Assembly: GCA_963718615.1 (NCBI GenBank)
Contig: OY970368.1
Coordinates: forward strand, 3,520,001-3,584,000
Origin: an uncultured cyanobacterium
Lineage (GTDB): Bacteria; Cyanobacteriota; Cyanobacteriia; PCC-9006; JAAUQQ01
DNA length: 64,000 nt
Direction of reading: 5' to 3'
Shown piece by piece: positions 19,111 through 64,000 of the stretch (within the stretch, counting starts at the first letter, position 1; each line of letters begins with the position of its first letter). Below the pieces are notes generated by a model. That model was given only the letters and a program-made list of their open reading frames with translations, made no database searches and was not told where the DNA came from. A program made the position numbers and the translations under genes.

Positions 19111-19221
19111 GACTATTGGTATTTACTTCTAACAACCTGCGAAGAATTTTTTTCTTGAAGGATTAGGTTGAATACCATTGCTCTTAGATACAAAATCTAA
19201 ACGAATCTGAAGGAGTCTAAA

Positions 19222-20580
19222 ATGCCAGTTGTAAAAGTGCCTGAAGCTTCACTCTCCTATTATCTGATCGCTTTCGACAAAGACGGAAAAGAGCGATCTG
19301 AGTCGGATGGCTTCCTGTGCCAACAGATATTGGATGTTTTGGTGAGTGAGCCCATCACGGATGTGTTTTTGATTAGTCATGGTTGGCTAGGAGATGTGCC
19401 TGCAGCGAAGAGACAATATAACGAATGGATCAGAGCAATGGTAGACAGTGAAGATGCTCAAAAAGTAAAAGCATCACATCCTGACTTTAAGCCCTTGATG
19501 ATCGGTCTTCACTGGCCTAGTAAACCCTATGGAAATGAAGACTTAAATGCATCTTTTTCGTTTGATTTGGCAGAACCACAAGCCAATGACATGATCGAAA
19601 ACTATGCAACTGAAGTCTCAGACACACAGGCTACTCGGGATGCATTTAAAGAGATTATTGCCGCAGAAAACAAGCTGCGACATGCTTACCAAACAATCCT
19701 TCGTGAAGCTTACGCGAGTGATGGTGCTAACCATTCAGAAGAGTGGGAACAGGCCGAGCCTTTGCTAAAAAACGCACAACTATCAAAAACTCGAGACAAC
19801 GCCAGCAAAAGCAACGTAAGTTTGGGGGATGATGTAGCTTTTGGTCTGGAAGACAACTTCATGGATGCCATCTCAGACTTCGATTTCAAAGATGCTCTTC
19901 TAAAACTACCGCGAATGGCTTCTTACTGGAAGATGAAAAACTTGGCCCGTACCATAGGCCAAAGCGGTGGGTTTGACTTGTTGCAAAAGCTTCAGCAAAA
20001 AGCGAACGAGAAGGTACGTTTTCATCTTATAGGACACAGTTTTGGCACCATTGTTGTGTCCTCGATGCTTAGAGGCCCCGAAAAAGACAGTCAGCTTGTA
20101 CGCCCGGTCAACTCGCTTAGTCTGATACAGGGAGCCGTATCCCTGTGGTCGTATTGTCCTCAAATTCCTAAAAGGGATAATCTTGAGGGCTATTTTTACT
20201 CTATCATTCGCGATAAGAAAGTTGCAGGCCCTATTATCACAACACTCTCAAAATATGATAAAGCGGTAAGACTCATGTATCCTCTCGCTAGTCATGCTGG
20301 CTTACTAGGCGGAGCAGACATTGACTTTGACGTGAACTTTGGTGATTCAGCCTATCCTATCGTAGGTGGAATCGGAACTTATGGTATTCAAGGCAACGGT
20401 CTACTAGACGTTGAAGATATCCTAATGAAGTCCCAAGACAAAGCCTATCGATTCAAGCCCGGTTTTATTTACAACTTGAATAGTGACAACTTTATTCAGG
20501 ATGGAACAAAAGATGCTCACTGTGCTATCGCTAAGCCCGAAGTCGCACATGCTGTCTGGTCCGCTGCATTTAGCGTTTAG
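19222..20580 (+). CDS. Alpha/beta-hydrolase fold protein
   Basis: SHGW oxyanion motif, IGHSFG nucleophile elbow, SKYD and DAHCAI candidate Asp/His; SD GGAG upstream; no signal peptide. Confidence 0.8.
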   Translation: MPVVKVPEASLSYYLIAFDKDGKERSESDGFLCQQILDVLVSEPITDVFLISHGWLGDVPAAKRQYNEWIRAMVDSEDAQKVKASHPDFKPLMIGLHWPSKPYGNEDLNASFSFDLAEPQANDMIENYATEVSDTQATRDAFKEIIAAENKLRHAYQTILREAYASDGANHSEEWEQAEPLLKNAQLSKTRDNASKSNVSLGDDVAFGLEDNFMDAISDFDFKDALLKLPRMASYWKMKNLARTIGQSGGFDLLQKLQQKANEKVRFHLIGHSFGTIVVSSMLRGPEKDSQLVRPVNSLSLIQGAVSLWSYCPQIPKRDNLEGYFYSIIRDKKVAGPIITTLSKYDKAVRLMYPLASHAGLLGGADIDFDVNFGDSAYPIVGGIGTYGIQGNGLLDVEDILMKSQDKAYRFKPGFIYNLNSDNFIQDGTKDAHCAIAKPEVAHAVWSAAFSV

Positions 20581-20664
20581 CTTCATCTTGCCAGCAAGTA
20601 TCTAGGCAAAAAGTATCGAGTCGAAAAATATCCATTTGATGTCCATCTTTCTCCAGAACTAGCT

Positions 20665-22368
20665 ATGGTTGAAGAGAAAATTTATTTCAACGGAATCAAT
20701 GGCAGCACAGGCGAATACCTATTTCCCCCGCTGACTGCCGAGCAGCTTGCGCAAGTTGCGAGAGGTGAAGAATTTGAATCTTCAGAAATCACAGAGTTAA
20801 AACAAAAGAACCGGCGGGTCAAAGGTCTTGAGGTTGATTTCGCCCCTAAAGAAGGAATAGATCCTAAAGACCTTGCCCAAACAGGGTGGGGCGTCATTTT
20901 CTCTTATGATTCAGATCCGGCCATTAAACAAGCGCTTCAAGTGCTTTTGGATCATCGTAAGAGACAGGCTACTCAGAGACATGATCACTACTATCAAGAA
21001 TATGTCGGGGTTAAAGGATATCGACCTGGCGAATCAAAAAATCAGTTTTTAGCTCGGCACAAGGTTGGCCCTGGGCCGGCTGACCCAGATAAAATGCCCT
21101 ATTATTTGCTGATTGTAGGTGATCCAGACACGATTCCCTTTCGCTTTCAGCATCAGCTAGATGTGCAATATGCAGTAGGGCGTATCCATTTTGATACCCC
21201 AGCTGAATATGCTCAGTATGCCCGCAGTGTTGTCAAAGTAGAAACGGAAAATGTTGTTTTGGCTCGTCGAGCGCATTTCTTTGGGGTGCAAACAGAAGAT
21301 GATCCAGCAACTCAGCTCAGCGCTCAAAAACTAGTACAGCCACTTGCACAGTGGATGATTGAGGATCAAGGTGGAAGCAATTGGAGCGTAGAAACTACAC
21401 TAGGTAAAGCGGCGACAAAGGAGACCTTAGAAACGCTATTGGGCGGATCACAGACGCCAGCACTGCTGTTTACAGCGAGTCATGGCATGGGGTTTAGTAA
21501 CGGAGATCGCCGACAGATCTCCAAGCAGGGGGCTATTCTTTGTCAGGATTGGCCAGGGCCTAAGGCGTGGGAGACTAGACCTATCCCCGAAGATTATTAC
21601 TTTTCTTGCAATGATATTAGTGATAATGCCCGTCTTTTGGGGCTCATCTCTTTTCACTTTGCTTGCTATAGTGCCGGAACGCCTCAGTTCGATGAATTTT
21701 CCCATAGAGAAGCGTCAGAACAACGGCCAGAAATCGCACCACACGCCTTTATTTCAGCTTTGTCAAAGCGGTTGTTGAGTCATCCTCAAGGTGGTGCCCT
21801 CGCGGTGATTGGTCACATTGAACGAGCTTGGGGATGTTCGTTTGTGTGGGAAGATACTGGCGCTCAGTTAGCTGTTTTTGAGAGTACCTTAAAGCGGTTA
21901 CTCGAAGGTCACACCGTAGGCTCAGCGGTTGAGTATTTCAACGAGCGCTATGCAGAATTATCTTCTGATTTGAGTAGTGAGTTAGAAGAAATTAGATATG
22001 GTAAGACGTTTGAAGCCTCAGCCTTATCGAGTATGTGGACCGCTAACAATGATGCTCGGGGCTATGCGATTATCGGCGATCCGGCTGTAAAGCTTCCTAT
22101 GGGTGGCTCTACAGAGGATAGTTCTGTAGGCGAACGCTCTGTACGTCCAATAATAGGACCTTCACCGCAAGATTTCTCGGGTGCGATCATAACACCGACT
22201 CAACCCAGTGAATCGCTTTCCTCCGTCGAACAAGCACGAAACGATCTGAACCAAACCCTCGATCCCGTGATTAGCGCAATTCAACAAGGTCCTGTAGAGC
22301 GCAGCGTGCTACAGCAAGCACTATCAGCGACTATCAAACTTCTAGAAGCTCTAAATGAACAGCTCTAA
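20665..22368 (+). CDS. Peptidase C25 (gingipain-like, caspase/hemoglobinase fold) cysteine protease
   Basis: YYLLIVGDP..IPF and AVGRIHF (C25 N-subdomain), FTASHGMG (His), HFACYSAG (Cys), GGALAVIG, terminal IIGDPA; no signal peptide. Confidence 0.75.
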   Translation: MVEEKIYFNGINGSTGEYLFPPLTAEQLAQVARGEEFESSEITELKQKNRRVKGLEVDFAPKEGIDPKDLAQTGWGVIFSYDSDPAIKQALQVLLDHRKRQATQRHDHYYQEYVGVKGYRPGESKNQFLARHKVGPGPADPDKMPYYLLIVGDPDTIPFRFQHQLDVQYAVGRIHFDTPAEYAQYARSVVKVETENVVLARRAHFFGVQTEDDPATQLSAQKLVQPLAQWMIEDQGGSNWSVETTLGKAATKETLETLLGGSQTPALLFTASHGMGFSNGDRRQISKQGAILCQDWPGPKAWETRPIPEDYYFSCNDISDNARLLGLISFHFACYSAGTPQFDEFSHREASEQRPEIAPHAFISALSKRLLSHPQGGALAVIGHIERAWGCSFVWEDTGAQLAVFESTLKRLLEGHTVGSAVEYFNERYAELSSDLSSELEEIRYGKTFEASALSSMWTANNDARGYAIIGDPAVKLPMGGSTEDSSVGERSVRPIIGPSPQDFSGAIITPTQPSESLSSVEQARNDLNQTLDPVISAIQQGPVERSVLQQALSATIKLLEALNEQL

Positions 22369-22395
22369 AAATATGATTTGATATACCGTTAACAG

Positions 22396-22431
22396 AGAAA
22401 GTTCAGGGCACTTTGTGGTTCTGAGCTTTCT
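22396..22431 (+). terminator. Stem-loop between the C25 and CHAT genes
   Basis: AGAAAGTTCAG...CTGAGCTTTCT inverted repeat (one G-U pair). Confidence 0.45.
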
Positions 22432-22486
22432 TGTATAAAAATCTGTATGAAATCTCAAAATCAATTCGTAAGGGAGCCGCGTTTAG

Positions 22487-25400
22487 ATGTCCGTATTTGA
22501 GATTACCATTCAGCGTAAAGTAGCAGACTACTATCCTATTGTCGCAAAATACAGTAGTCGTCCAGATGAGCCTGTCGAATTTTTACCTGTCTGGTCAGAA
22601 GGGAAGCTGCGACTTTCTCAAACAGACCATGACCATCTCTTCAGCCTGATAGGCCAACCCAGAGAGTATGGAACTTATTTAGGGCAATTACTCTTTAAAG
22701 ATAGTATTGGCAATGCTTTCGCAAGCGCCAGAGCAAGAAGTCCAGAGTGTTTGCGCCTGTTGCTGTTTCTTGAAACTAAAGAATCTGAGCTACAGACGCT
22801 GCGATGGGAGCGTCTATGTGCTCGTGGAGATGGCAATGAATGGAATTTCCTAAGGTGCGATCAGCGAGTTCCCTATTCGATTTATGTACCTTCTCTGGCA
22901 GCTCGTCGGTTTCCGCCTATTGGCCGATATGGTTTAAGGGCGCTAGTGTTAGTGGCCTCGCCCGAAAATTCAGAAGCATATGGACTCGCTGCTTTCGACG
23001 TTGAGGAGACGGTTGCAAGTGTTTGCGCCTCTTTGGGAAGTGTTCACTGTGATGTATTAGCTGATGTTGATGGTGCACTCGGACTGCCCACCATAGGCAA
23101 CCTCATGACCCATCTTACGAAAGAAACCTATACGTTTCTCCATATTGTTTGTCACGGGCGACAACGAGAGGATGTCAGTCTTTTTTTATCAGATGAACAT
23201 AACCAGGTTACGTATGTCAAGGGCAAAGAGTTAATTGAAAAGCTGAAAGATATAGAAGGTCTGCCTCACTTGACGTTCCTTTGCACCTGTGAAAGCGCCA
23301 AAGTTGATGATGATGGTGCCTTTGGTGGGTTCGCAGGGCAGTTAGTCAGAGATTTGGGAATGCCTGCAGTGGTGGCGATGACGGAGAAAATAACTGTCCG
23401 TACAGCCAAGAGGTTAGTCCAGGCGTTCTATCAACGGTTGATAGAAAATGGCGAAGTTGATTTAGCCTTAGATCAAGCAACCGCTTCAGTCAGTAGCCGA
23501 GATGATGTGTTGGTACCTGCTTTGTTCAGCCGTCTGGGCGGACGGCCCTTGTTTAGCGATACCCTTAATCGCTTACTGACACCGCGAGAAATTGATAACG
23601 GGTTAAAACGCTTGAAACGTCTACTAGAAGAGCGAGCACCTGTGCTAATTGAAGAGTTTGATATGCAGCAAAAGGCGCTAAGAGCAGAAGATAATGGGGT
23701 AATAGAGATATCCTCGCTGAATGAGTCTGCTCGCAATAAAGCACAGGCCGCTCTAGACGAACTGAATAAAATCTGTGGTGAAGTAGTGGGTATCAGCTTT
23801 AATGCTGTTGCCCTAAACAAAAAAGTATCGCAATACGATCCGCGCTGTCCGTTTCCTGGTTTAAGCCCTTTCACACTGCAAGATAAAGAATTCTTCTGCG
23901 GGCGTGAAGCGCTGGTCGATAGCTTAAAAACAAAACTGGAGAAGTCTCCCTTTTTAGTATTAGTAGGCCCCTCTGGAAGCGGTAAGTCATCGCTGGTATT
24001 GGCAGGCCTGGTTCCAGCCTTACAGAAAGCTCAACCTAACTTAAAATTGATTTATATAGTCTTGCGTAGCAATCCACTCCAGCAGCTAGAAGATTGTCTT
24101 TCAGAGGTGAAAGACCTCCCTTTTATATTAGTCCTAGAGGCGTTCGAGTTGCTATCTACGCTTTCTCTAGCTCCCGAAAAACAGAAAGAGTTTATCGAAA
24201 GACTGCTAGAGGTTGTTGATTCGCATCAGTCACAGCCTAAAGTTGTATTTACGGTGAGAAGAGAATTTTTGACTGACAGTATTCACCACAACACTCTATC
24301 AAACAGACAGATATCCGTTGAGAAAATTGAGCCAATGACTGCGGCAGAGCTGCGACTGGCTATGGAACAACAGGCTGCAAAGGTTGGCCTTAAATTTGAG
24401 GTTGGCCTGAGCAATACTATTTTAGATGATATAGAGGAAGAGCCTGGCTCAATGCCGCTTTTGCAACATGCGTTGAATCTGTTGTGGCAGAAGCGTCATG
24501 GGCAGTGGCTCATCAACAGCGAATATCAAAAATTTGGAGGTGTTAAAAAAGCGATCGCGAGCACTGCTGATAATTTCTATGAAAAGCTCTCTGAAGGAGA
24601 GCAAGCGCGAATGAAAAATATTTTTATTCGCCTGACGCGCCTAGATCCCGATGCTACAACGGGAAAAGATAGTCAAGATACCCGGCATCGGCGAGTTGCT
24701 TTGTCGGAATTAGTGCTGGCCGAAGGTGACCCGGAAAAGAGCCTGGTTCAAACCCAAGCACTTGTGAATAACTTAGCCGGAGACGCGGTGCGGTTAGTTC
24801 GTATAGAGATGTCGCAAGAGGGTAGTAATCATAAAATCGGCAGTGATGTGCAAGAAGTCGTAATGGCTCACAAAGCTTTGATCCACGACTGGTCCAAGCT
24901 AAGCCAATGGCTAGAAGAAAACCGAAGTTACTATCAACGTAGAGAAAAACTTAGCGAAGACGTCAGGCATTGGAGAAAGAATAAATGTCGAGCAGAAGAT
25001 CTGATTTCTCAACAAAAAACACTGGATGCAGCCAAGGAGCTAGGACGCCTTGGCTTTTTAAACGATGCAGAAGCAGAATGTGTAGAGAAATCACAACAAG
25101 CGCAGTTAAGAAAGTCTAGAGCGTATACGATCGGGGTGACAGGCGTTGCTGTGCTGCTGGCGGGTGTTTCTGTTTTTGCTTGCCGACAGCAAAAAGTCGC
25201 TGTTGAACAGAAAGGAATTGCTGAGATAGGCAAACAGATCGCTCAGCTAAAGGAACAGTCGGCGAGAGCTTCTAGCTGGATTTCTGAGGGTAAGTCTGCA
25301 CCGGGTCTAATGTTGTCTTTGGGGACACTCAGTCAAAGTGTTGAGAATGATCAGTATCCACCTGAGGTTGAGCTAAATGCCCAAGAGTCAGTGATAGATG

Positions 25401-27460
25401 CTGTACAACGTGCCCGTGAGAAGAATGTTTTGGAAGGGCACGAAAACAGCGTAAAGGCGATTGCCTACGATTCTAAAAATGACTACATTGTTACTGGAGG
25501 TGAGGACAATAGCTTAAAAGTTTGGGATGCTAAAACAGGAAAACTGTTAACAGCCAGAGTAAAGGCACACGATGATGCAATCTACACCGTTGTGTTTAGT
25601 CAGGATGGAAAACATCTCGTGAGCGCTGGAAAAGACAAAACATTGAACGTTTGGACGATTGAGCCGAGCGATGGCGATAGCCTAGCTAATAGGCAGACTC
25701 TTGACTCGATTAAGCTCTCGTTGAGAAACCGTATTCAGGGAGGCCATACTCAGCCAATACGTGCGGTTGCATTTAGTCCTGAGGGCGATCGTTTTGTCAG
25801 TGCCAGTGATGATCAAACATTACAACTCTGGAACGTTAAGTCAGGTAAGCCGATTGGTGAACGAATGAGAGGGCATACAAGTATTGTTTGGGCCGTAGCC
25901 ATTAGCCCTGATGGTACGCAGATTGCCAGTGGAAGTGTTGATAGAGCGATTAAAGTCTGGGATGGAAAGACCGGAGAGCTAACGTTTACAATCCCATTTG
26001 CGCATGAAGATAGCATATTTTCTATTGCTTTTAGCCCGGACAGCAAACGCATTGTCAGCGGCAGTGGGGACAGAAGTATTCGGGTGTGGGATGCCCGAAC
26101 CGGAGCTCCCATTGGATTTCCGCTACTCGGCCACGATGGTAAAATATATTCTGTGGCATTTATGCCCAATAATCAGACTATTGTAAGTACGGGCAGCGAT
26201 CGCACCATTCGTTTTTGGCATCCTGAAACTGCAACAGAAACGGGCAAAATTGTAGAAGCCCATAGTAGCTTAATCTGGGGACTTGCTTTAATGAATAACG
26301 GCAAGGAAATGGCGAGCGTCGGATCTGATAAAAAAATTCGGCTGTGGGATATCAACAACGATTTACCACTAGGTCAACCCCAGCGAACGCCTCACACGAA
26401 AGATATTTTGTCGATTGCGATCAGTCGTGATGGTGATCGAATCGTTAGCGTGGGTGAAGATACCAAGCTAATGATGTGGGATGTCTACACTCAAAAGCTT
26501 CTCTGGAAAATGCAAAACGTTCATGATGCGCCCATTCAATCAGTTGCTTTTAGCCCAACAGAAGCAAAGTTTGTCACTGCTAGCAGCGACGGCACCCTAA
26601 AGTTGTGGGATGCAACCGCTCAAAAAAACAGCATTTGGAGAACAAAGTCTAATCCAAGTCTTACCCGTAACCAGCGAGATATTTATACTGTAGCGTTTGC
26701 GCCAGATGGTAAAACCGTTGTCAGCGGCGGCAGAGATGGAAAACTAAGAATATGGGACGTAAGTACTGGCGATCAGAAAGTTGAATGGATTGCAGCCAAT
26801 GCAAAAAGCCCTATTCTTTCTGTTGCAGTGAGTCCCGATGGAAAATATATTGCGAGTGCTGGTGCTGATCACATTATTACGCTGCTGGATATGCATACAG
26901 GAGAGGTGATACAGCGTTTTCGCGGACATACTCAAGATATTTGGGCGATCGCATTCAGCCCGGATGGAAAATTGTTGGTTAGCGGCGGCAAGGACGACAC
27001 GCTGCGACTTTGGCAGATAGAAAAAGGCCAACAGATAGGGAAAGAACTCAAGGGTCACACGAATGATATTTCGACTGTCGCATTTAGCCCAACGGGTAAA
27101 CAAATTGCTAGCGGAAGCTTTGATAAAACCATACGCCTATGGGATATCCAAAACATTGAACAGGTAAAACCTTATGGACCACCCCTTATAGGCCATTTAG
27201 AAAGTATATGGTCTGTTCAGTTTATGCCAGATGGAAAGTCTATTGTCAGCGCCAGCGCAGATCTCACCTTGCGTAGATGGCCGAGTCACTGGTCTCAGTG
27301 GTCCAAAATGGCTTGCGAACGTTTAGAGAATCATCAGCTAATGAGTGACTCTCAGGAAAGTGCAAATATCGACAAAGATTTAGCAGAAATCTCTGGGGCG
27401 GCCAAAGAAGCCTGCGATCGCAAGTTTTGGCAGATAAAAGAGCGTGTCTCTATGCCGTAA
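22487..27460 (+). CDS. CHAT protease - nSTAND1 NTPase - hydrophobic segment - 14x WD40 protein
   Basis: LHIVCHG and FLCTCES (CHAT dyad); CPFPGL.PF...FCGRE, GPSGSGKSS (Walker A), PGSMPLLQHAL; hydrophobic helix AYTIGVTGVAVLLAGVSVF; 14 WD40 repeats counted. Confidence 0.9.
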   Translation: MSVFEITIQRKVADYYPIVAKYSSRPDEPVEFLPVWSEGKLRLSQTDHDHLFSLIGQPREYGTYLGQLLFKDSIGNAFASARARSPECLRLLLFLETKESELQTLRWERLCARGDGNEWNFLRCDQRVPYSIYVPSLAARRFPPIGRYGLRALVLVASPENSEAYGLAAFDVEETVASVCASLGSVHCDVLADVDGALGLPTIGNLMTHLTKETYTFLHIVCHGRQREDVSLFLSDEHNQVTYVKGKELIEKLKDIEGLPHLTFLCTCESAKVDDDGAFGGFAGQLVRDLGMPAVVAMTEKITVRTAKRLVQAFYQRLIENGEVDLALDQATASVSSRDDVLVPALFSRLGGRPLFSDTLNRLLTPREIDNGLKRLKRLLEERAPVLIEEFDMQQKALRAEDNGVIEISSLNESARNKAQAALDELNKICGEVVGISFNAVALNKKVSQYDPRCPFPGLSPFTLQDKEFFCGREALVDSLKTKLEKSPFLVLVGPSGSGKSSLVLAGLVPALQKAQPNLKLIYIVLRSNPLQQLEDCLSEVKDLPFILVLEAFELLSTLSLAPEKQKEFIERLLEVVDSHQSQPKVVFTVRREFLTDSIHHNTLSNRQISVEKIEPMTAAELRLAMEQQAAKVGLKFEVGLSNTILDDIEEEPGSMPLLQHALNLLWQKRHGQWLINSEYQKFGGVKKAIASTADNFYEKLSEGEQARMKNIFIRLTRLDPDATTGKDSQDTRHRRVALSELVLAEGDPEKSLVQTQALVNNLAGDAVRLVRIEMSQEGSNHKIGSDVQEVVMAHKALIHDWSKLSQWLEENRSYYQRREKLSEDVRHWRKNKCRAEDLISQQKTLDAAKELGRLGFLNDAEAECVEKSQQAQLRKSRAYTIGVTGVAVLLAGVSVFACRQQKVAVEQKGIAEIGKQIAQLKEQSARASSWISEGKSAPGLMLSLGTLSQSVENDQYPPEVELNAQESVIDAVQRAREKNVLEGHENSVKAIAYDSKNDYIVTGGEDNSLKVWDAKTGKLLTARVKAHDDAIYTVVFSQDGKHLVSAGKDKTLNVWTIEPSDGDSLANRQTLDSIKLSLRNRIQGGHTQPIRAVAFSPEGDRFVSASDDQTLQLWNVKSGKPIGERMRGHTSIVWAVAISPDGTQIASGSVDRAIKVWDGKTGELTFTIPFAHEDSIFSIAFSPDSKRIVSGSGDRSIRVWDARTGAPIGFPLLGHDGKIYSVAFMPNNQTIVSTGSDRTIRFWHPETATETGKIVEAHSSLIWGLALMNNGKEMASVGSDKKIRLWDINNDLPLGQPQRTPHTKDILSIAISRDGDRIVSVGEDTKLMMWDVYTQKLLWKMQNVHDAPIQSVAFSPTEAKFVTASSDGTLKLWDATAQKNSIWRTKSNPSLTRNQRDIYTVAFAPDGKTVVSGGRDGKLRIWDVSTGDQKVEWIAANAKSPILSVAVSPDGKYIASAGADHIITLLDMHTGEVIQRFRGHTQDIWAIAFSPDGKLLVSGGKDDTLRLWQIEKGQQIGKELKGHTNDISTVAFSPTGKQIASGSFDKTIRLWDIQNIEQVKPYGPPLIGHLESIWSVQFMPDGKSIVSASADLTLRRWPSHWSQWSKMACERLENHQLMSDSQESANIDKDLAEISGAAKEACDRKFWQIKERVSMP

Positions 27461-55117: not shown

Positions 55118-55933
55118 CTAGAGGCCAGGGATCCGGCACAACAGATCGCGACTCACTAACCTCTCAAACTGGGCACGCATGGCTTTGGCTGAGAGGGTAT
55201 CTGAGAGTAAAACCCCTGCTTCAATATTGCGCTGATGGGCCGCCTCGGTGAAGTTGGCAGAAGTGACAAATAGCTTTTCATCATCCACCACGACGCACTT
55301 GGCATGGAGGCAGGCGCGAGGCCCAATCGCCGTTGAAAGCGACTGGGGGTCGTAGAACACCTCCGGTAGGCGATCGCCGGGCCAAATCTCATTGCGGAAG
55401 CTTTCAGAAAATTTGCGCAGCAATGCCGCATCTGAGGTTTTGCGATCGCCATAGGGCCGCTTGATGTTCATAAAAATCCGAACCTTCAGCTCAGGAATGG
55501 TCACCATACGCTCAGCTAGGGGCTGGAATAGCGCTTTGGCTTTCTTGCCTGTGTCCAGGGCGTAGCTAGAAATTAAGACGCTCTTTTGGGCGCTGTGGAA
55601 TAGCTCCTGCACCACGACTCGCGTGTCGCGGCTTTCAGTTCCGAGGACTTCTTCGCCGGTCCAGACGAGGTCGATTCCGTTGCGTTGTTCCTGGGCTTGC
55701 TTTCGCGCTTGGGCCAGCAGATTGAGCAGGTAGGCCAGATGCACAGCTTTCATGCCGTCGCCGCTGAGCTGGTTTAGCTCGGTGGCGATCGCCGTCATGA
55801 GCGAGGTGGGCACCACATTGGTCAAGCTGCTGGGTTGGCAGGGGAGCGGGATACGCCCCTGGGCGATCGCATCTGCCAGGCCTTCCAAACCAGGCCGACT
55901 TAATTGGTGAAAGGCCGAAGTCGTCTTCACCAT
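55118..55933 (-). CDS. drmC: DISARM phospholipase D-like protein
   Basis: LVWTG, single HAKCVVVD HKD motif, TSANFTEAA..RNIEAG; follows drmB. Confidence 0.9.
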   Translation of the reverse strand: MVKTTSAFHQLSRPGLEGLADAIAQGRIPLPCQPSSLTNVVPTSLMTAIATELNQLSGDGMKAVHLAYLLNLLAQARKQAQEQRNGIDLVWTGEEVLGTESRDTRVVVQELFHSAQKSVLISSYALDTGKKAKALFQPLAERMVTIPELKVRIFMNIKRPYGDRKTSDAALLRKFSESFRNEIWPGDRLPEVFYDPQSLSTAIGPRACLHAKCVVVDDEKLFVTSANFTEAAHQRNIEAGVLLSDTLSAKAMRAQFERLVSRDLLCRIPGL

Positions 55934-55936: not shown

Positions 55937-57823
55937 CTACAGGGAGGATGGGAAGAATGCCGCCGCACCATTGTTTTCAACGGTCTCGACGACTAAGGCC
56001 CGATCCAGAAACTCATTGCCCTGCTCGCAAGAGGTCTCGGAGATGAGCAGGCAACCATGGCAAGCTGCGCCGTGGCGGAAGCGTTCCTCGTAGGGTTCGT
56101 AGGGCTTGTGCTGGGCACAAACGGGATCGTTGGAGCAGAGGCGACCGGAGTCGATGGCCTTGGCGATGTGCTGCTCAATTTTTCGCCTGACCTGAATCAG
56201 GCCGCCCAGGGTTCCTTCGGAACCGGAGGAGCCGGTGTAGAGCAAAATCCCATAACCCGAGGGTCCAGCATAGACTCGCTCTCGAATGGCGCTGGCCGAA
56301 TAGCCGCATTCCAATGAAATCGATGTGATCAGCAAATGGGACAGGCTATGAAGCATGATGTAGGGCAGTCCTGGAAACTTAAACGGCTGCTCCTGGGTGG
56401 CATTATCGGTTTTGATCTCCCGACGCTGGAGCCATTGGTCAAATCCCTGCTGAAGTTCATCACCGCGTTTCTTAACCGCATCGCGCTGGAGCCAGGTGGC
56501 GATCGCTTCAGGCTTAAAGGCGATAAAAATACCTTCTCCCTTGGTCTCAATGGCCGGAAACCAGTCGGTTTCTAAGCCCAAAGCGGCGGGCGCAACGTCG
56601 AGCTGCAACTCACCGTCAATATCTGAGAAGGGTGCTTCAAAGCGGGTGAAACTGACCTGGGCTCGCACTTCCCGCAGGCGATGGACCAGAACAATTCGGT
56701 CTACGGAGGCCCTGAGGGAGTCGGGCAGGTTATCCAGGCTGCGGTTGCGAGCGTAGAAATCCTTGTCGGGCAGGTCTTCACCCATCTCATCGGGCTGGGA
56801 TAGCAGCGTCTCGATCTCGACCTGTTTAATTTTTTTCGACTCTGGCTTCGCGCCACTTTTACGCTGTGTCACCTCGGCCCAAACCTGGTCATTGGAGAAC
56901 TCCCCCAGGGCTTCAGAGACGCGCTGCTTTTTGCGCTCACGGGCGATGTCATCAGCATCCTCGGCATATTGCAAAAAGTCCTCGTACACCAGATTCACCG
57001 CCTCTTTAATGGCGGCATCACTGCTGGGCAGGGAAATGACGGTGGAGGTTTGGGCAAAGTAGGCGTTACTGGCGGAGCGCACTAGAAGCTTGTTGTAGAC
57101 GCGACGGTTATCTTCGTCAATGCCGCATTCCTCGCGAGCATGGGGGCCGAGCCAAGGGCGATTTCCCTGACAAATGCCCAGCTCCTTTGATTTTGGTAGC
57201 GTCGCATCCGAAAGCGGACGCCGCTTCTCACAGGATTCACAGCGCACAAAGATGTCGGCAAAATCATTACCCGTGCCGCCCTCATCGAGCCAAAGCTCAC
57301 CAACACAACTCTCGCCTCTATGAACAAAGTAGCGCCAGTTAATATCGCTGATATGGCCATGGACGCAGGCTTGGACGAAGCGCACGGGAACCACAGAACG
57401 CTTCTTTTTATCCTTGTCAAAATACTTGCCACCATGGGGGGCAAGCTTCTTCCAGGGGAGCAGGGGGCGAGTGCGGTAGCGTTTCCCGCTGGGAGCCAGG
57501 AATTCTTCATCCACCTGGGCCACAAACCAGCCTGGAAACATGAAGCTTTGGATGCCGGTTCTTGGCCCGATGGGATCTTGGGAGCTGGCGGGGGGCTCGC
57601 GTAGGGAGATATTGGGCTGGCCGAATTTCTGCTGGAGGTACTGCTCCAAGCGAGGCTCATAGATACGAGGAATCTCGGTTTTGCCATAGTTCCAATGGTT
57701 GAGGCCGCCCATGAGGATGGAGGTTTCGGGCAGATCGACCATGGAACCGGGGCCAAAGCTGGACAGGATCTGGCTTTGGCGAATTTCACCCGCAGGGGGC
57801 TTCTTACCTTTGTTTTGACTCAT
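55937..57823 (-). CDS. drmB: DISARM DUF1998 protein
   Basis: R.SQ....FGPGS, RFVQACVHGH, HSLSHLLI, CSNDPVC, ACHGCLLISETSCE; ATGA overlap with drmA. Confidence 0.92.
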   Translation of the reverse strand: MSQNKGKKPPAGEIRQSQILSSFGPGSMVDLPETSILMGGLNHWNYGKTEIPRIYEPRLEQYLQQKFGQPNISLREPPASSQDPIGPRTGIQSFMFPGWFVAQVDEEFLAPSGKRYRTRPLLPWKKLAPHGGKYFDKDKKKRSVVPVRFVQACVHGHISDINWRYFVHRGESCVGELWLDEGGTGNDFADIFVRCESCEKRRPLSDATLPKSKELGICQGNRPWLGPHAREECGIDEDNRRVYNKLLVRSASNAYFAQTSTVISLPSSDAAIKEAVNLVYEDFLQYAEDADDIARERKKQRVSEALGEFSNDQVWAEVTQRKSGAKPESKKIKQVEIETLLSQPDEMGEDLPDKDFYARNRSLDNLPDSLRASVDRIVLVHRLREVRAQVSFTRFEAPFSDIDGELQLDVAPAALGLETDWFPAIETKGEGIFIAFKPEAIATWLQRDAVKKRGDELQQGFDQWLQRREIKTDNATQEQPFKFPGLPYIMLHSLSHLLITSISLECGYSASAIRERVYAGPSGYGILLYTGSSGSEGTLGGLIQVRRKIEQHIAKAIDSGRLCSNDPVCAQHKPYEPYEERFRHGAACHGCLLISETSCEQGNEFLDRALVVETVENNGAAAFFPSSL

Positions 57824-60800
57824 GACTTCAACTCCATTTCATTGCCATTGGGGTCATGCAACCACAGGTGAACCGTGGGTTCGACATCCCGCAGACTGCG
57901 TTGGGCTTTGAACTTTTTGGCTGGACCCACCTTGGGTCGGTCTGGGTCGAGCGGGGTGAACAGCAGTGGTGGTGCCTTGCCCACTTCCCGTTGGTATTGC
58001 AGGTCTCCTTCCTGCTCTTTGGCGACGCTGTCCCAACTATCCAAGAGGTCTCTGACGATGCCTTGCACTTTGAGCCGGAGCGCTTCCGCTTGGTCAGCAT
58101 CAAAATTCTTGTCGTGCATTTCTGCTCGTTTAGACAGCGCCTCGACGACAAAATCAAGCTCGGTGCGATGGGCGAGAATGGCTCCTGCACCCAAGGGCTG
58201 GGTCAGTTTGTCATGGCCTAGGCGGGCGAGGGCGACAACGACGCCGGGCAGACCTCGATCTAAGGCGCGGGGAGAGAAGGGGGTAACGCTGGTGGCTTCG
58301 ACAGCTCGGTAGAAGGTGTTGTGCCAGGCTTGGAAGCGTTCGTAGTGGGAACGGTCTCTGGGGCGATGAATGTTTAACAAGGTGATGACCAACCCCGGAC
58401 GTTCATCATCTCGGCCCACGCGGCTGGTGGCCTGAATGTATTCCGAGGCGGTCTTGGGCTGACCGAGCACGACCATGAGGCCGAGACGGGTGATGTCGAG
58501 ACCGACGGAAATCATATTGGTTGCCAGGACAACATCTACGGCTTTTTTGAAGTCTTCGGGGTGATGGAAGGTGGCTTCCAAACGGCTTTTGGCTTCGGCA
58601 ACTTTAGTGGTGTTGACCCGTGAGGTTAGCTCCAGGGGTTCGTTGATTTTGCGGCTGAGGAACAGGCCGAGGTCTTCGTCCTGGCGATGGCGATCGCCAT
58701 AGGTCTCCAACCGCGACTGCACTTCATCCTCAACGATGCGGCGGCTGCCCCCCAGCTCCCGCAGGGAGTTGAAGTAGCCCATCAGGGTCATGTAGGGGTC
58801 GGCTGGGTTGTCCTTGTTGCGACGGCCTCCGGCTTCTTCCCAGGCTTTTTTGCTCGCGCCGAGCATGGCGAGGTAGGTGCGCAGTAGAACGACCTTAAGA
58901 CTGCGGCCCTGGGCAGCAACGCCGAGGTAGCTGCGGCCATGCTTCTCCGTCACGGGGACGGTTTTGGCAAAGAAGGAGTCGCGGCGGTCTGGGCCGGGGG
59001 GCGGGAAGACTTCGACGGTGTCGCGGCCAAAAAGGGCGCGGATTTGACTGGTGGCGCGGCGGACGGTGGCGGTGGAGGCGACGATTTTGGGGCGGATGGT
59101 TTGACCGTCTGCGGTTTGGTAGGTCGAGAGGGCATCGATCGCCGTTTCATACAGCCCCACCATGGTGCCGAGGGGACCGGAAATCAAATGCAGCTCGTCT
59201 TGGATGATCAGGTCTGGGGGCAGTAGGGGCTTGGTTAAGGCTCCCCCTTGGTTGGGTTGGGCGGCACCGTAGAAGCCGTCTTGGTCGTAGCGCTTCACCT
59301 TGCCGAAGAGGCCTGCGGTTTCGCCAATCCAGGGCAGGTTGGCAAATTTATCCACGGTGGCAATGAGGAAGCAGGGTAGACGGCGATAAATGGGTTCATC
59401 CACGGTGACGATGGGCAGGGATTGGTCCCGGCGAAAGACGCAGACGGGTTTGCCATCCGGGCGCTTTTTCTTATTGAGGCAGGTGATGCGCAGGTCTTTG
59501 GGCTGGTCCGTGGTGGGGAGGAGTTGAAAGGACTTGGCTCCAAATTGGGTGCCACACCAGGGGCAGTTTTCCAGAGGAATAGGGCAGTCTGGGGTGGTTT
59601 CGTTTTGGTAGGCGATGGTGCGGGCGCGGGCGCTGGTGCGGTCCTTGTCTTTTTTGCTGCCCATGCGGTTGGCGGTGGCGGCTTGGCCCACCCAGAGGCC
59701 TATCTCGAAGGGCCAGGGGCCAAGCTTTTCAACGTTCTGCTGGCGCTCTAGTTCTAGGGCGCAGATGAGGGTGGCGGCGCGGCCCAGTTGGTCGAGGGTG
59801 AGTAGGCGCAGGGTGTAGCGCATGAGGACGCTGAGGCCTGCGGATTCGAGGCCGGGGTTGCGCAGGCGGCGCAGGACGAGGGTGAAGGCGGCGAGGCCCA
59901 GGTAGGCTTCGGTTTTGCCGCCGCCAGTGGGGAAGAAGATAAGCTCAACTGTCTCTCGATCTTGATTTTCCGGATCGTCGATACTGACGATATTCATGAG
60001 TAGAAATGCTATTTGAAAAGGCCGCCAAATAGGTGTTCTGGCATTCTCTGGCAATAAGTCATCTCGATCATGAGTTGCACGCTGCCTCATGCTCCTTGCC
60101 ACAGCACGATTAGCAATTTGGAAGGCTTCTAGAACATCGGGTTTATCGAGAGCCTTTAACCCAGCTTCAATACGTTGATTAACGTGGGCAGCTTTCTCTA
60201 GAAGGTCTTTAGAGACTTCAGCACGTTGCTGTGGGCTCGTGGGTGCATTGGCTTGCTGTTGAGTAATCCAAGTGCTGTAGGCTGTGACGATGCCGCCGAC
60301 CATACCGCGAATTGCATCTGCATCAACCGCATCACCTAGGGCTTCAATTCTTAAATCAACTTTAGGAATTTCTTCGTTATGGAGAACTTTCTCGACATCG
60401 GCCTGGGGCATCCAGTTGGTGCTGGCTTGGTAGCACTGGGGCTGGTCTGCTTCACCTGGGGCTGTGGCGGAGACGATGGCTGTGGCAGAAACGTTATGGC
60501 CGACGGCGTATTCGACGTCGTGGCGATATTGGAGGTCGGCGATGCGTCCGTCTTCGTCGTCGAGGGCTTGGGTGCGCAGGTCGGGGCGGGGAACAAAGGG
60601 CAGTTTTGAGCTGGCGGTGAGTTGGACTTGGAAGATGTAGGCGCAGTCTCGCTCGGCGCTGAGGGCGGCGGGGGCGCGTTTGTTGACGAGGAAGAGGGAG
60701 ACGGAGCGGGTGCCGCTGGGAAGGCCGCAGCCGTTGTTGATGGGGCGAATGGAGAGGGAGAGTTCTAGGCCGTTGCTGCCGGGAACGGGGATGGTTTTGC

Positions 60801-61359
60801 GAATCCCTTCGGTGGCGGGCAGGTCCAGTTGAGTGATGCCAGGGATGGGGTCGTTGCCGAGCAGGCTGATTTGCTCAGGGTCGTCGCTGGCTTGGGAAAG
60901 GGAGATGCAGAGGGCAGATTGGCGGGGGGTGCGTTGCCAGGGGCGGCTGGTGCTGGCTTGGAGGCGGGTTTCGGCTTCGCTCTCAGCTTCGGGTAAGGGG
61001 TGGTAGTCACCCCAGGCGCAGTCCACGTCAATTTCCGTTGTCTCGGCGCTGATGAGGAAGCTGAGGCCAAAGGAGGAGGGGAAGATGCCTTTGCGGGCGG
61101 AGGCGGCTTCGGGCTTTTCGTCGTCGTCGCCGCTGGTTGTTTTTTCAACCTGAGAGTCGAAGCTGTCGTCGCTGTCGGGGTCGGAGCGGTCCTGGAGTTT
61201 GGCTTCGTAGGGGACAAGGAAGCCGGACAGGTACCACTTGGAGGGGGCCTGGGGGATAATTTCATCGGCATGGGCGCTGTCGGGCTCAGGACCGATGAGG
61301 TCGAGCTTGAGGGCATTGATGAGAGATGACCGCACTTCTGCGGAGGTTTCTAGCGCCAT
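57820..61359 (-). CDS. drmA: DISARM SF2 helicase
   Basis: DLIGP, PTGGGKTEAY, RYTLRLLT, QDELHLI, ATNMISVGLDI.RL, QATSRVGR, RDRSHYE. Confidence 0.93.
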   Translation of the reverse strand: MALETSAEVRSSLINALKLDLIGPEPDSAHADEIIPQAPSKWYLSGFLVPYEAKLQDRSDPDSDDSFDSQVEKTTSGDDDEKPEAASARKGIFPSSFGLSFLISAETTEIDVDCAWGDYHPLPEAESEAETRLQASTSRPWQRTPRQSALCISLSQASDDPEQISLLGNDPIPGITQLDLPATEGIRKTIPVPGSNGLELSLSIRPINNGCGLPSGTRSVSLFLVNKRAPAALSAERDCAYIFQVQLTASSKLPFVPRPDLRTQALDDEDGRIADLQYRHDVEYAVGHNVSATAIVSATAPGEADQPQCYQASTNWMPQADVEKVLHNEEIPKVDLRIEALGDAVDADAIRGMVGGIVTAYSTWITQQQANAPTSPQQRAEVSKDLLEKAAHVNQRIEAGLKALDKPDVLEAFQIANRAVARSMRQRATHDRDDLLPENARTPIWRPFQIAFLLMNIVSIDDPENQDRETVELIFFPTGGGKTEAYLGLAAFTLVLRRLRNPGLESAGLSVLMRYTLRLLTLDQLGRAATLICALELERQQNVEKLGPWPFEIGLWVGQAATANRMGSKKDKDRTSARARTIAYQNETTPDCPIPLENCPWCGTQFGAKSFQLLPTTDQPKDLRITCLNKKKRPDGKPVCVFRRDQSLPIVTVDEPIYRRLPCFLIATVDKFANLPWIGETAGLFGKVKRYDQDGFYGAAQPNQGGALTKPLLPPDLIIQDELHLISGPLGTMVGLYETAIDALSTYQTADGQTIRPKIVASTATVRRATSQIRALFGRDTVEVFPPPGPDRRDSFFAKTVPVTEKHGRSYLGVAAQGRSLKVVLLRTYLAMLGASKKAWEEAGGRRNKDNPADPYMTLMGYFNSLRELGGSRRIVEDEVQSRLETYGDRHRQDEDLGLFLSRKINEPLELTSRVNTTKVAEAKSRLEATFHHPEDFKKAVDVVLATNMISVGLDITRLGLMVVLGQPKTASEYIQATSRVGRDDERPGLVITLLNIHRPRDRSHYERFQAWHNTFYRAVEATSVTPFSPRALDRGLPGVVVALARLGHDKLTQPLGAGAILAHRTELDFVVEALSKRAEMHDKNFDADQAEALRLKVQGIVRDLLDSWDSVAKEQEGDLQYQREVGKAPPLLFTPLDPDRPKVGPAKKFKAQRSLRDVEPTVHLWLHDPNGNEMELKS

Positions 61360-61454
61360 GGGTGCTAAATCAGACCAGTAAATCTATCTAAAGCATAGCG
61401 GTAGAGAAAGCGATCGGTCAGGATGGTTTTGCCCCTTTTGACTTTCATGAGCGG

Positions 61455-61532
61455 TTAGGCGACGGCGTAGCCGGTGTGGGGCCGAACGTGGGGGGGATGG
61501 AAGGCGAGGACGATGTGGTCTTTGGCTGCCAT
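61455..61532 (-). pseudogene. Fused xisH-start/xisI-end deletion remnant
   Basis: Manual translation MAAKDHIVLAFHPPHVRPHTGYAVA*. MAAKD resembles the XisH N-terminus; KDHIVLAFHPP.VR..TGYAVA resembles the XisI C-terminus. Confidence 0.7.
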
Positions 61533-61548
61533 GACTCGATTTTAGGGG

Positions 61549-62925
61549 CTAATCCAGCAGGTCGAGTTGTTCGATGGCGGGGGGGATGAGGTTGAGCTGT
61601 TTGCTGGGCTTGGGGCTGGTGTTTTTGCTGGGTTTGGCTTTGGCGGGGGGTTTGGCTTTGGCTTTGGCTTTGCCGGTTTTCTTTTTGCCGTGGAGGCCGC
61701 CGCGTATTTCTGCTTCGTAGCGGGTTTGGTTGAGGTCGAGGAGGCGGGCGAGGATTTCGTCGTGGATGGCTTCGGGCCAGCGGTAGCGCCAGGGGAGTTT
61801 TTTGCGTTTTTTGAGGCTGGCTTGGATTTGGTTGTCGAAGGCGGCGGCTTGGGCGGGGTCGGCCCAGTGGAGGTCGCCGGATGCGATGCGGTCTTGGAGG
61901 TTGGGGGGGAGGTTGTCGGTTTCGATGTCGAGGTAGTCGAGGGCGAAGCCGCAGGGGATGTGGCCTTGGTCGTCGGTTTCAAGATGTTCGGTCCAGCCGT
62001 AGGCGGTGAGGACGGCTTGGTCCATTTGGCTGTGGAGGTCGCGGAGGTGGTGGATTTCGGGGTCGGTTTCTTGGGGGTCGTGGAAGCGGTTGTAGGTGTC
62101 GGTGAGACCCTGGTTGTTGCGGATCATGAGGGCGGCGCGGTAGTCGTAGTAGGCTTTGCCGATGGTTTCGAGGGTGGGGTCGGTTTCCCAGTTTTCGGGG
62201 AAGGGGAAGGTTTCGAAGCAGTCGGAGGGGGTGTAGCGGAGTCGATCTTCCAGGGATGAGCCGAAGAAGCGTGTCCAGATTTCGTGGGGTCGGGATTGGA
62301 GGGCGCAGAAGGCTGAATAGGTGGAAATTGCAATTACGATAAGCTGCTCAGAATAGACCGTTCCTGCTGACAGAAATGTGAATGATCCATGTTGACCGAC
62401 ACGAGCAACTACTAATACCCGATCGCAAGTTGCGATCGCTCTAAACAAAGCAGGCGTGGTCTCCCCAAATTGCCACCAATAACGTGCTCGAATTTCCCGA
62501 TTTTGCTTGAGTCTTGCGGGCTTAATCTTCTCCTCAACGATCGCCATCAACTCCGGCCATTCCCGCGCTTCCTCCTCGCTCATCTCCCCAAAATTAATCA
62601 CATAGCGATGATGCTCATGGGTCGGGCTACTGTTGACTTCAGAGCCACCAATATAGGGGAAAATGCGTTCCTGATTCTTGGGATTCTCGGCAATCAATCG
62701 CTGCATTTCGGCCAGGGATGTTGCCTCAGGGGCCGTATCATCAAACGTAAATCCCATGCCTAAAACATAGCTGCCGACAAAACTCTTTTCCGCATTGGCC
62801 AGCAGCACTTTCGGGTTTTCGTGACCGCCCTTGGGAAACAGAAATGCCGTGATTTTTTCGACGGGTTTGCCGTCTAGGAGAATGGGAATAGAGGGTGGCA
62901 GTGCAAAGGAGAGGTTGCTTGACAT
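61549..62925 (-). CDS. drmMI: C-terminal (target-recognition, MmeI-like) half of the DISARM class I adenine methyltransferase
   Basis: ILLDGKPVEKITAFL, GSYVLGMGF, PYIGGSEVN, LRYTPSDCFETFPFP, GLTDTYNRFHDP, DEILARLLDLN. Confidence 0.8.
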   Translation of the reverse strand: MSSNLSFALPPSIPILLDGKPVEKITAFLFPKGGHENPKVLLANAEKSFVGSYVLGMGFTFDDTAPEATSLAEMQRLIAENPKNQERIFPYIGGSEVNSSPTHEHHRYVINFGEMSEEEAREWPELMAIVEEKIKPARLKQNREIRARYWWQFGETTPALFRAIATCDRVLVVARVGQHGSFTFLSAGTVYSEQLIVIAISTYSAFCALQSRPHEIWTRFFGSSLEDRLRYTPSDCFETFPFPENWETDPTLETIGKAYYDYRAALMIRNNQGLTDTYNRFHDPQETDPEIHHLRDLHSQMDQAVLTAYGWTEHLETDDQGHIPCGFALDYLDIETDNLPPNLQDRIASGDLHWADPAQAAAFDNQIQASLKKRKKLPWRYRWPEAIHDEILARLLDLNQTRYEAEIRGGLHGKKKTGKAKAKAKPPAKAKPSKNTSPKPSKQLNLIPPAIEQLDLLD

Positions 62926-62932
62926 AAAACTT

Positions 62933-63319
62933 CTATGGATAAGTGAGTAAGTTTAGATTGTCGATAAAGCGAAAATCCCGTTGATTTTTACTCAACAGTG
63001 CCATCTGAGCCTCCATAGCAGTCGCCGCAATCAGGGCATCTGGGATAAGTAACCCATGACTCAAAACATAGCGCTGAAGCAATTCCTGAGCACGAGCACT
63101 GATGGGCTCCGTCAGGTGGATCACCTGAAACCGCTCAACAAACCGTTCCAACTCCCTGAGCTCAGCCTTGTTTCGGCAACCCACCATCAGCTCCATCACA
63201 GTAATGACCGACACAGCCAAAGTCGAGACTTCACTCTCCTGCATCACCCGTTGCTTAGCGGTATTGTCATCATTAGAAATATCAATCAAGATATCGGTAT
63301 CCACGAGCGTTTGGATCAT
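62933..63319 (-). CDS. Type II TA toxin, PIN/VapC family
   Basis: LVDTDILID, TVMELMVG, PDALIAATA, LSKNQRDF. Confidence 0.92.
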   Translation of the reverse strand: MIQTLVDTDILIDISNDDNTAKQRVMQESEVSTLAVSVITVMELMVGCRNKAELRELERFVERFQVIHLTEPISARAQELLQRYVLSHGLLIPDALIAATAMEAQMALLSKNQRDFRFIDNLNLLTYP

Positions 63320-63323
63320 GTCA

Positions 63324-63809
63324 TTACCGCCACTGCTGTTCTCTTAACTGCCTAACCCAAGCTGTACTATCCTCTAGCTCTGGGCGATCTTTCCACATTC
63401 CCACAAACGCCAATCCCTCTAGATCTAAAGGCCGAGATTGCTGGTTCAATCTCTGACTCAAAGCATCATCTTCGTCAGCATCTTCACTGGACTCATCATC
63501 ATGATGCCAAGCAATCACTGAATCAATCTCCGTTTTGTGGGATCGATAATAGGCTTGCACCGCAAACAGATCAAACGGAGTTAACCCTGGAAAATTTTCA
63601 AGCAATTCGTCCTCATCCATACCTTGCTGAACCAAAGAAACCAACGTCCAAACCGCAACTCGCGTATTGCGCAAACAAGCATATCCGCCCGCCACACCCG
63701 GCGTTTTGCGAATCATATGATTGATAATGACCTCTTGAAATAAAGCATAGTCATCCTGGGGCAAAGCAACCACCGCATCGACCAAAGACTCCACCAGTTT
63801 CGGATTCAT
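63324..63809 (-). CDS. DUF433 domain antitoxin with extra C-terminal motif
   Basis: IRKTPGVAGGYACLRNTRVAVWTLV (DUF433), acidic linker, FVGMWKDRPELEDSTAWVRQLREQQW. Confidence 0.85.
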   Translation of the reverse strand: MNPKLVESLVDAVVALPQDDYALFQEVIINHMIRKTPGVAGGYACLRNTRVAVWTLVSLVQQGMDEDELLENFPGLTPFDLFAVQAYYRSHKTEIDSVIAWHHDDESSEDADEDDALSQRLNQQSRPLDLEGLAFVGMWKDRPELEDSTAWVRQLREQQWR

Positions 63810-64000
63810 CGCCGTTTCCCTCCCGAAGTTCCTTGCTTAAAAATATGCACCACACTCACCACCACCGCCGCCAAACCGGGCCATTTATAGCGCCGCGTCG
63901 CATTGTAGATCGTCCCCCCATTTTGGCAGACAAACCGTAACCCCGTGCTGCGCGTGTCTCCCTGGGCGATCGTATTCGTGGCAATCAACCCATAGGCTCC
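63806..64000 (-). CDS. drmMI: End of the N-terminal (Eco57I-type catalytic) half of the DISARM methyltransferase; truncated by window end
   Basis: Frame open from 64000: GAYGLIATNTIAQGDTRSTGLRF...YKWPGLAAVVVSVVHIFK, typical late methyltransferase motifs of type IIG/MmeI-like enzymes. Confidence 0.8.
   Translation of the reverse strand, partial: GAYGLIATNTIAQGDTRSTGLRFVCQNGGTIYNATRRYKWPGLAAVVVSVVHIFKQGTSGGKRR

Follow-up and report, generated by a model that had tools for sequence, protein, structure and literature searches.

The methylase gene drmMI of a Class 1-type DISARM (a restriction-modification-associated defence island system) operon, lying at the right end of a 64,000-nucleotide stretch of cyanobacterial DNA (assembly GCA_963718615.1, contig OY970368.1, positions 3,520,001 to 3,584,000; hereafter "the window"), is encoded in separately translated pieces with a toxin-antitoxin (TA) cassette between them. 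Alignments put the cut in a flexible linker, with the methylase domain on one side and the target recognition domain (TRD) on the other. Eight other species-level genomes are split at this junction too, always with small-gene cargo, which among them covers several TA families; this family-wide pattern is a real feature, and it looks like an old arrangement that has been maintained, not a single accident. We favour, with modest confidence, a reading in which the TA-in-split-drmMI arrangement is kept, with its pieces working together, its TA genes resident in the operon and their exchange driven by recombination.

To describe the junction, we note that all window genes treated here lie on the minus strand, with seven running in the same direction at the window's end. 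The DrmMI N part, of which 64 codons (63806-64000, the end of the N6-adenine methylase domain) fall within the window before the frame passes beyond its edge, ends in ...VVSVVHIFKQGTSGGKRR with a TGA at 63806-63808 that overlaps, as ATGA, the ATG (63807-63809) of a 161-aa DUF433 antitoxin gene (63324-63809; open reading frame (ORF) list and Pfam DUF433), with GGGAGGG 8 nt upstream of that start. A 4-nt gap separates the antitoxin stop from a 128-aa PIN/VapC-like toxin gene (62933-63319; ORF list and Pfam PIN), and 7 nt past the toxin stop an ATG at 62925 begins the 458-aa DrmMI C part (61549-62925; Pfam and PADLOC), which opens MSSNLSFALPPSIPILLDGKPVEKITAFLF and holds the TRD and C-terminal region. 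The TRD-bearing frame is a separate one, 880 nt downstream of the methylase part, so that the TRD is not in one chain with the methylase domain. This layout, with all its coordinates and spacings, is as an earlier note on this DNA, made from the letters alone, had described it.

Profile and structure alignments place the break. Against the PADLOC DrmMI model PDLC02640 (1015 positions), the 64-aa N fragment covers positions 549-608 (E 6.5e-26) and the 458-aa frame covers positions 611-1002 (E 1.4e-158), so that the two pieces are adjoining parts of one protein from which nothing has been lost at the break; an alignment with intact DrmMI was a check that the earlier note had proposed. Pfam MmeI_Mtase matches the N fragment weakly (18 bits against a 27-bit cut-off), and MmeI_TRD matches the C part at 54.2 bits. 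Relative to MmeI, the N piece aligns to residues 478-581, from the NPPF region to the end of the methylase core, with its last conserved strand at 578-581, and the C part aligns to residues 743-889 of the solved structure. The break therefore maps to about MmeI residues 585-620 and, given the MmeI domains in the available portion of PMC4833311 (methylase 301-620, TRD 621-825, C-terminal bundle 826-919), to the boundary between methylase domain and TRD, which is where the earlier note had put it.

To evaluate how widely this junction is split, we scanned one genome per species, which yielded 79 related loci, and measured in each the distance between the motif closing the methylase domain and the motif opening the TRD. 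The junction is read through in 67 of the 79: in 50 it spans 30-36 nt in one frame, as in an intact gene, and in 17 it carries stop-free in-frame expansions (51-411 nt, 7-127 extra codons). Seven loci are split with cargo (L004, L007, L010, L016, L054, L067 and L075), and an eighth, L014, is likewise split, the 1.3 kb ahead of its C part encoding XisI, UPF0175 and a DUF3368 protein. The remaining four are decayed or not informative, namely L013 (a 221-nt out-of-frame gap with no cargo ORF), L025 (with an internal deletion), L045 (its methylase domain interrupted by a stop) and L036 (masked). Small-gene cargo is thus present in all 8 split loci. The earlier note had suggested surveying for cargo at this junction, and its own counter-scenario, that the halves are separate genes whatever the cargo, fails on these counts. 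It had also placed the motif of the C half directly after VVSVVH in intact proteins; this adjacency stands in substance, but the two motifs lie about 10 codons apart, as the 30-36-nt spacing of the 50 intact loci indicates.

The split loci resemble one another in the position of the break and differ in what fills it. In all eight split cases, the window included, the N part ends 5-18 residues past ...VVSxVH and the C part starts 7-18 codons ahead of an LDG motif. The stop of the N part is overlapped or abutted by the first cargo gene in the window, L016 and L007. The cargo is a DUF2281-like antitoxin with a PIN protein in L004, L007 and L075; DUF433 with DUF5615 in L016; UPF0175, a remnant of the L004-type antitoxin and DUF433 with DUF5615 in L067; three pairs, including PemK/MazF and PIN, in L054; and homologues of two of the L054 small genes, with no recognised toxin domain, in L010. 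At least six different toxin or antitoxin families are therefore housed at this junction across genomes. The gene row of L016 runs drmD, both DrmMI parts, Uma2, drmA, drmB and drmC, with drmD directly upstream of drmMI (PADLOC DrmD, 1155.7 bits), a position in which drmD is absent in L007. Relatives also occur in 32 records of a plasmid collection.

Further small genes and linker variants were seen around this junction. Between the DrmMI C part and drmA, extra cargo occurs in L007 (11683-12712, an HTH_17 and PIN_3 pair) and in L016 (11318-11923, the Uma2 nuclease-like gene), and this spacer from the C part to drmA measures 1.4-3 kb in many loci but only 190 nt in the window. The expanded-linker loci are L005, L008, L015, L019, L020, L022, L026, L031-L033, L046-L048, L064, L066, L070 and L071; Oscillatoriales expansions show an internal Met followed by a leader-like stretch (..MATHPTVPAILDG), and such in-frame expansions could have been left behind where halves fused again, or could precede a split. 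A second break site considered for L009, L043 and L059 was rejected, their short upstream frames being due to frameshifts or small gaps and not to cargo.

Protein databases carry the same pattern. In a search for which intact and split lengths were both eligible, the 120 best relatives of the 64-aa N fragment include 88 whose C-terminal end lies 4-25 residues past an AAVVVSVVH-like motif. Among near-length relatives of the C part, 105 of 119 start 15-38 residues ahead of ITAFLF (101 of the 105 with M), a proportion that is not a prevalence because full-length proteins were excluded from that search. Database proteins point to Phormidesmis priestleyi, Pantanalinema rosaneae, Spirulina major CS-329 and Spirulina sp. 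CS-785/01 as candidate strains with the clean two-piece form. Representatives at greater distance mostly form one chain, about 1270-1410 aa long. PADLOC also contains a 935-position DrmMI model that spans the N part only, which indicates that such proteins have been seen before, though not discussed. In the literature searched, including the parts available of PMC9716671, PMC12458937, bioRxiv 10.1101/2021.12.28.474362 and PMC4833311, we found neither a split drmMI nor TA genes within one described, and split drmMI with TA cargo is in this sense a Class 1 DISARM variant without a description.

In agreement with the earlier note, there is no transposase at the split locus and no in-frame direct repeat, and the cargo has no flanking direct or inverted repeats, the only matches found being imperfect, of 10-19 nt and of a size expected by chance. 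A transposon or site-specific insertion signature was rejected on these grounds, with no such match bordering cargo, and an excisable element was rejected for want of a recombinase and of direct repeats, the XisI of L014 being just a small accessory-type gene. A scan for a promoter or terminator of its own gave 2 promoter-like sites against 1.9 expected and 5 terminator-like sites against 3.3. Because the cassette genes share the operon's orientation and their starts and stops overlap or nearly abut, they are probably read from the operon's own transcript.

Turning to the cassette's proteins, the antitoxin matches Pfam DUF433 at 65.8 bits, with its DUF433/COG2442 domain at residues 33-88 followed by an acidic C-terminal tail. 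Over residues 1-110 it shares 61-62% identity with the DUF433 cargo genes found in L016 and L067, and its residues 121-157 match the tail of the UPF0175 cargo protein that L067 carries at the same junction (E 1e-12). By these matches the window antitoxin is a chimera, or mosaic, of two cargo types found at this junction elsewhere. The toxin matches Pfam PIN at 61 bits and NCBIfam VapC at 53 bits, under the latter's 80-bit cut-off, and aligns with the solved VapC 7by2_B (E 2.3e-12) with the DT.ILID, ME, PDA and DF positions retained. The acidic residues D7, E43, D93 and D114, which we take to be catalytic, are kept in this alignment. A PIN toxin with these residues, preceded directly and at tight spacing by a small antitoxin gene, is what characterizes VapBC modules of the PIN-COG2442 type. 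According to the portion available of PMC3834315, PIN-COG2442 (DUF433) pairs are a TA type abundant in cyanobacteria. The earlier note had proposed a domesticated arrangement of this particular pair, which proved too narrow a view given the variety of families at the junction and the chimeric antitoxin.

We assessed the halves and cargo for signs of selection and decay. Between split loci, the ratio of nonsynonymous to synonymous substitution rates (dN/dS) is 0.09-0.27 for the N and C parts (7 pairs) and 0.06-0.31 for cargo genes (5 of 9 pairs, those in which the synonymous rate, dS, was estimable and unsaturated). Purifying selection has thus acted on halves and cargo over a divergence that has nearly saturated their silent sites. 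For the toxin cargo of L004 and L075, dS is 1.1, comparable to 0.78 and 1.17 for the flanks, and since cargo and flanks resemble each other in silent divergence, the ancestor was seemingly split already, with cargo and halves diverging side by side from then on. Among the other split loci the N part measures 921-957 aa, but that of L075 has 1190 aa and that of L054 is cut by a contig end; where the contig allows, each has the conserved N-terminal motif at its start. The window's C part shows no private deviations at columns where 28 other homologues agree. Taken together, the family pattern argues for a working two-piece enzyme, whose assembly and methylation activity we infer, and the long retention and purifying selection fit a two-subunit enzyme resembling methylase (M) and specificity (S) subunits better than they fit simple inactivation.

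The remainder of the operon supports the DISARM assignment that the earlier note had made, with drmA, drmB and drmC each above its NCBIfam cut-off. The DISARM helicase gene drmA (57820-61359, 1179 aa; NCBIfam and PADLOC) matches NCBIfam DISARM_DrmAS at 1204.1 bits (cut-off 950) over positions 1-1165 of 1165 and PADLOC DrmA at 1101.8 bits. Next to it, and sharing 4 nt with it, lies drmB (55937-57823, 628 aa), a DUF1998/MZB protein gene found with NCBIfam DrmB_fam at 607.5 bits (cut-off 240), Pfam MZB and PADLOC DrmB. The phospholipase D-like gene drmC (55118-55933, 271 aa) matches the Class I model NCBIfam DISARM_DrmC_I at 199.7 bits (cut-off 133), Pfam PLDc_2 and PADLOC DrmC at 400 bits. Both visible drmMI pieces match DrmMI models as expected of a Class 1 member, but the gene is split and its recorded N piece is 271 aa long. 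These profile matches make the operon a DISARM one of Class 1 type; its host is a filamentous cyanobacterium. Opposite the C part, a long antisense frame (61546-62259, plus strand, 237 codons, G/V/F-rich) reflects a plus strand poor in A and C and is not a gene.

To trace how the split spread, we compared trees built from different portions of the gene. On the whole C-part tree the split loci are scattered: the split label changes 7 times (strongly supported branches require at least 3 of these), and a count this low came up in 125 of 500 label shuffles; a single origin on this tree was rejected, monophyly having a p-AU (approximately unbiased test) of 0.003. On a junction-near tree, built from the 52 residues before and 110 after the junction (162 columns), the split label needs 3 changes, a number as low as which none of 500 shuffles reached. 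Six of the eight split rows fall there in one group with one expanded-linker row (L048), and a second group consists of L010 and L054. With an identical set of 71 rows, a distal tree needs 5 changes against 3 for the junction-near one, and the window's nearest rows are intact Nostoc-type genes distally and other split loci proximally. Likewise, the best protein relatives of C-part residues 1-205 differ from those of residues 206-458.

The nucleotide composition of the C part changes at about the same place. Third-position C+A runs at 0.28-0.58 over codons 1-200 and at 0.90-0.94 over codons 201-450, with almost one codon per amino acid in codons 201-458, and this sharp switch near codon 200 (62300-62330, unstranded) marks a putative recombination breakpoint. 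The codon-usage seam and the disagreement between proximal and distal relatives point to spread by recombination. From these patterns we infer a few original splits, after which cassettes and adjoining gene segments would have been swapped by homologous recombination through conserved flanks.

The same codon bias was observed beyond the C part. Over 57820-62325 it is extreme and patchy, C or A filling 80-94% of third positions with near one codon per amino acid, and the biased blocks are drmA codons 51-300, 501-600, 751-800 and 1001-1050 and, in the DrmMI C part, the final 258 codons. Adjoining blocks and the other window genes are ordinary (third-position C, C3, 0.18-0.47), and relatives show a weaker proximal/distal codon contrast irrespective of their G+C content.

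Assembled as a mechanism, these results suggest that the drmMI pieces would act as a two-subunit enzyme, one piece catalytic and M-like and the other S-like and responsible for recognition, as in Type I and Type IIB systems. The cassette between them would be a type II TA module, in which a DUF433-type antitoxin carrying an additional toxin-binding tail is paired with a PIN/VapC RNase toxin, and it may be resident as an addiction or selfish module that profits from the defence operon and stabilizes it. Exchanges of cassettes between loci would carry the adjoining part of the TRD with them.

Several observations weigh against this account. The dN/dS values are averages over whole branches, and the common ancestry of each split pair is deduced from shared tails, leaders and cargo. 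In the junction-near tree the main split group has an SH-aLRT (Shimodaira-Hasegawa-like approximate likelihood ratio test) support of 90, under the mark for strong support, includes the unsplit L048 and comes from a tree on 162 columns. The C-rich third-position pattern is partly family-wide, so that the codon switch alone is no proof of recombination. Decayed drmMI copies exist in L025 (the internal deletion), L045 (the methylase-domain stop) and L009 (frameshifts). The upstream methylase piece of this genome is a further concern: on the same contig (6,095,823 bp) it is recorded as a 271-aa protein, P0270, which starts within the near-invariant DHALKCGDSLVG motif and has 3 private substitutions there, in its first 10 residues. 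The S-adenosylmethionine (SAM)-binding motif I, which in relatives lies upstream of the YGVDKNP region, is absent from the window and from P0270, which retains motif IV (NPPF) of the gamma-class methylase core, its GNPPFAG, outside the window, corresponding to MmeI 478-484. Moreover, a search for this genome's roughly 650-aa N-terminal piece, with the first 645 residues of the L067 N part as query and proteins under 354 aa not eligible, returned no piece of 354-1129 aa from the same contig among the 120 best matches. The earlier note's statement that both halves stay open accordingly stands for the C part, which is fully open, but cannot be carried over to an N half with 64 codons in the window and a 271-aa record.

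The foremost alternative is simple inactivation, in which drmMI was hit by a selfish TA cassette and survives as a pseudogene that is decaying in several pieces, with drmABC working without a methylase or decaying as well. The truncated start and private substitutions of P0270, the missing larger N-terminal piece and the decayed copies in relatives all speak for it, as does the Serratia Class 1 system, where, in the accessible part of bioRxiv 10.1101/2021.12.28.474362, loss of the methylases brought no autoimmunity, which indicates that such a loss is tolerable. Because the upstream piece is called as only 271 aa, the enzyme here may be incomplete, and this genome's copy may be either a decaying or a three-piece one. 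Against inactivation stand the fully open C part, free of private deviations where its 28 homologues agree, P0270 residues 11-271, likewise without private deviations, and full-length drmA, drmB and drmC. Elsewhere the split-with-cargo state is old and selected, so that at most the second, upstream break would be inactivating, and we regard inactivation as a serious contender that is nevertheless unlikely.

Other observations concern pieces of this methylase outside the window. A second recurrent break lies about 270-300 residues upstream of the TA junction (proteins P0270, P0345, P0370, P0376 and P0409), and several complete cyanobacterial genomes encode middle pieces of about 290-340 aa; Synechococcus PCC 6312 has 631 + 302 aa, the 631-aa piece being N-terminal, and Chamaesiphon has 299 aa. 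P0002, apparently from the same contig as the window, is a second stand-alone DrmMI C part, 80% identical to that of the window (75% over residues 1-205 and 86% over residues 206-458), which suggests a second split DISARM-type methylase in this genome.

A bolder extension of the favoured arrangement, which we find doubtful, makes the junction a cassette-exchange site: addictive TA "drivers" would move between DISARM loci by homologous recombination, dragging a TRD segment along, while the enzyme stays a two-subunit M+S one. If true, the selfishness of TA modules would be what drives specificity of methylation and defence to be swapped horizontally.

An abortive-infection role for the TA pair is possible, and in its full form the pair would be a working defence arm, a backup or guard whose labile antitoxin vanishes when a phage halts host expression or hits DrmMI, freeing the PIN RNase. 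The nesting and apparent co-translation of toxin and antitoxin within the operon would suit this, as would the recurrence of toxin-type cargo at the junction, and in L007 between drmMI and drmA, and the retention of the acidic residues expected of an active PIN nuclease. Weighing against it, the cargo families are interchangeable, L010 has no recognisable toxin domain, L067 holds an orphan antitoxin and a remnant, and 67 of the 79 loci do without any cargo. Because the cargo is interchangeable and includes orphans and remnants, selfish turnover fits better than a tuned partner, and selfish or addictive residents appear to explain the cassettes better than an abortive-infection role, so that we consider the defence-arm explanation improbable. 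An assembly or gene-calling artefact, with the cassette not truly inside drmMI, could be suspected from the sharp composition change inside the C part but is very hard to credit, given the same architecture in 8 independent genome assemblies, its implication by 88 N-type and 105 C-type database proteins, and the record of the window's proteins on a 6.1-Mb contig.

Returning to the kept arrangement of split drmMI with resident TA genes, it would mean that hundreds of cyanobacterial "hypothetical" proteins of about 400-460 aa and "methylases" of about 930 aa are the two halves of one enzyme. It would also provide a natural and repeatedly used cut site in an MmeI/PglX-type methylase, between a catalytic and a recognition piece, which would be useful for understanding and engineering the specificity of DISARM- and BREX (bacteriophage exclusion)-like systems. 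The TA modules lie inside, not merely beside, a defence gene, and so offer a testable case of whether such modules stabilize defence operons, back them up or drive specificity exchange.

Elsewhere in the window, the plus-strand block 19201-27460 has A/T-rich third positions; its products are a 459-aa protein of unknown kind, a C25-like peptidase and an nSTAND1 nucleoside triphosphatase (NTPase) of 1657 aa with WD40 repeats, and it is possibly another conflict system.

Comparison with known systems places the locus nearest to Class 1 DISARM (drmD-drmMI-drmA-drmB-drmC, for example in Serratia sp. SCBI). It shares drmA, drmB, drmC and a DrmMI-type methylase, in the gene order given in the portion available of bioRxiv 10.1101/2021.12.28.474362, and the homologous split locus L016 has drmD directly upstream, which here would lie beyond position 64000, outside the window. 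It differs in that its drmMI is translated as two or more separate pieces, with a TA cassette in between, and has no drmMII. The single-chain gamma-class N6-adenine methylases with their own TRD, MmeI/Type IIL and BREX PglX, have the same domain order, but form one polypeptide where here the chain is broken just before the TRD, and the likeness implies no nuclease activity. Type I restriction-modification (R-M) enzymes (M and S subunits) and the Type IIB enzyme BsaXI (RM plus an S subunit) place catalysis and recognition on separate, assembling polypeptides (PMC9159934 and PMC3874165, as far as available), as proposed for split DrmMI; their split point is not homologous to this one, and their S subunits carry two TRDs and are ancient separate genes.

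The cassette, for its part, resembles VapBC10 of Synechocystis PCC 6803, of the PIN-COG2442 type, in its DUF433/COG2442 antitoxin followed at tight spacing by a PIN toxin. Unlike the antitoxins of such VapBC-type modules, that of the window is extended at its C terminus by a tail homologous to one in a UPF0175 antitoxin, and the pair sits inside a defence gene with room for a promoter of its own solely within coding sequence. The anticodon nuclease PrrC, embedded in the locus of the Type I R-M system EcoprrI, lacks an antitoxin gene, its silencing being the work of the R-M proteins themselves. As a latent RNA-cutting toxin nested among R-M genes, it offers a model for a "backup suicide" function, from which the window differs in carrying a dedicated antitoxin gene.

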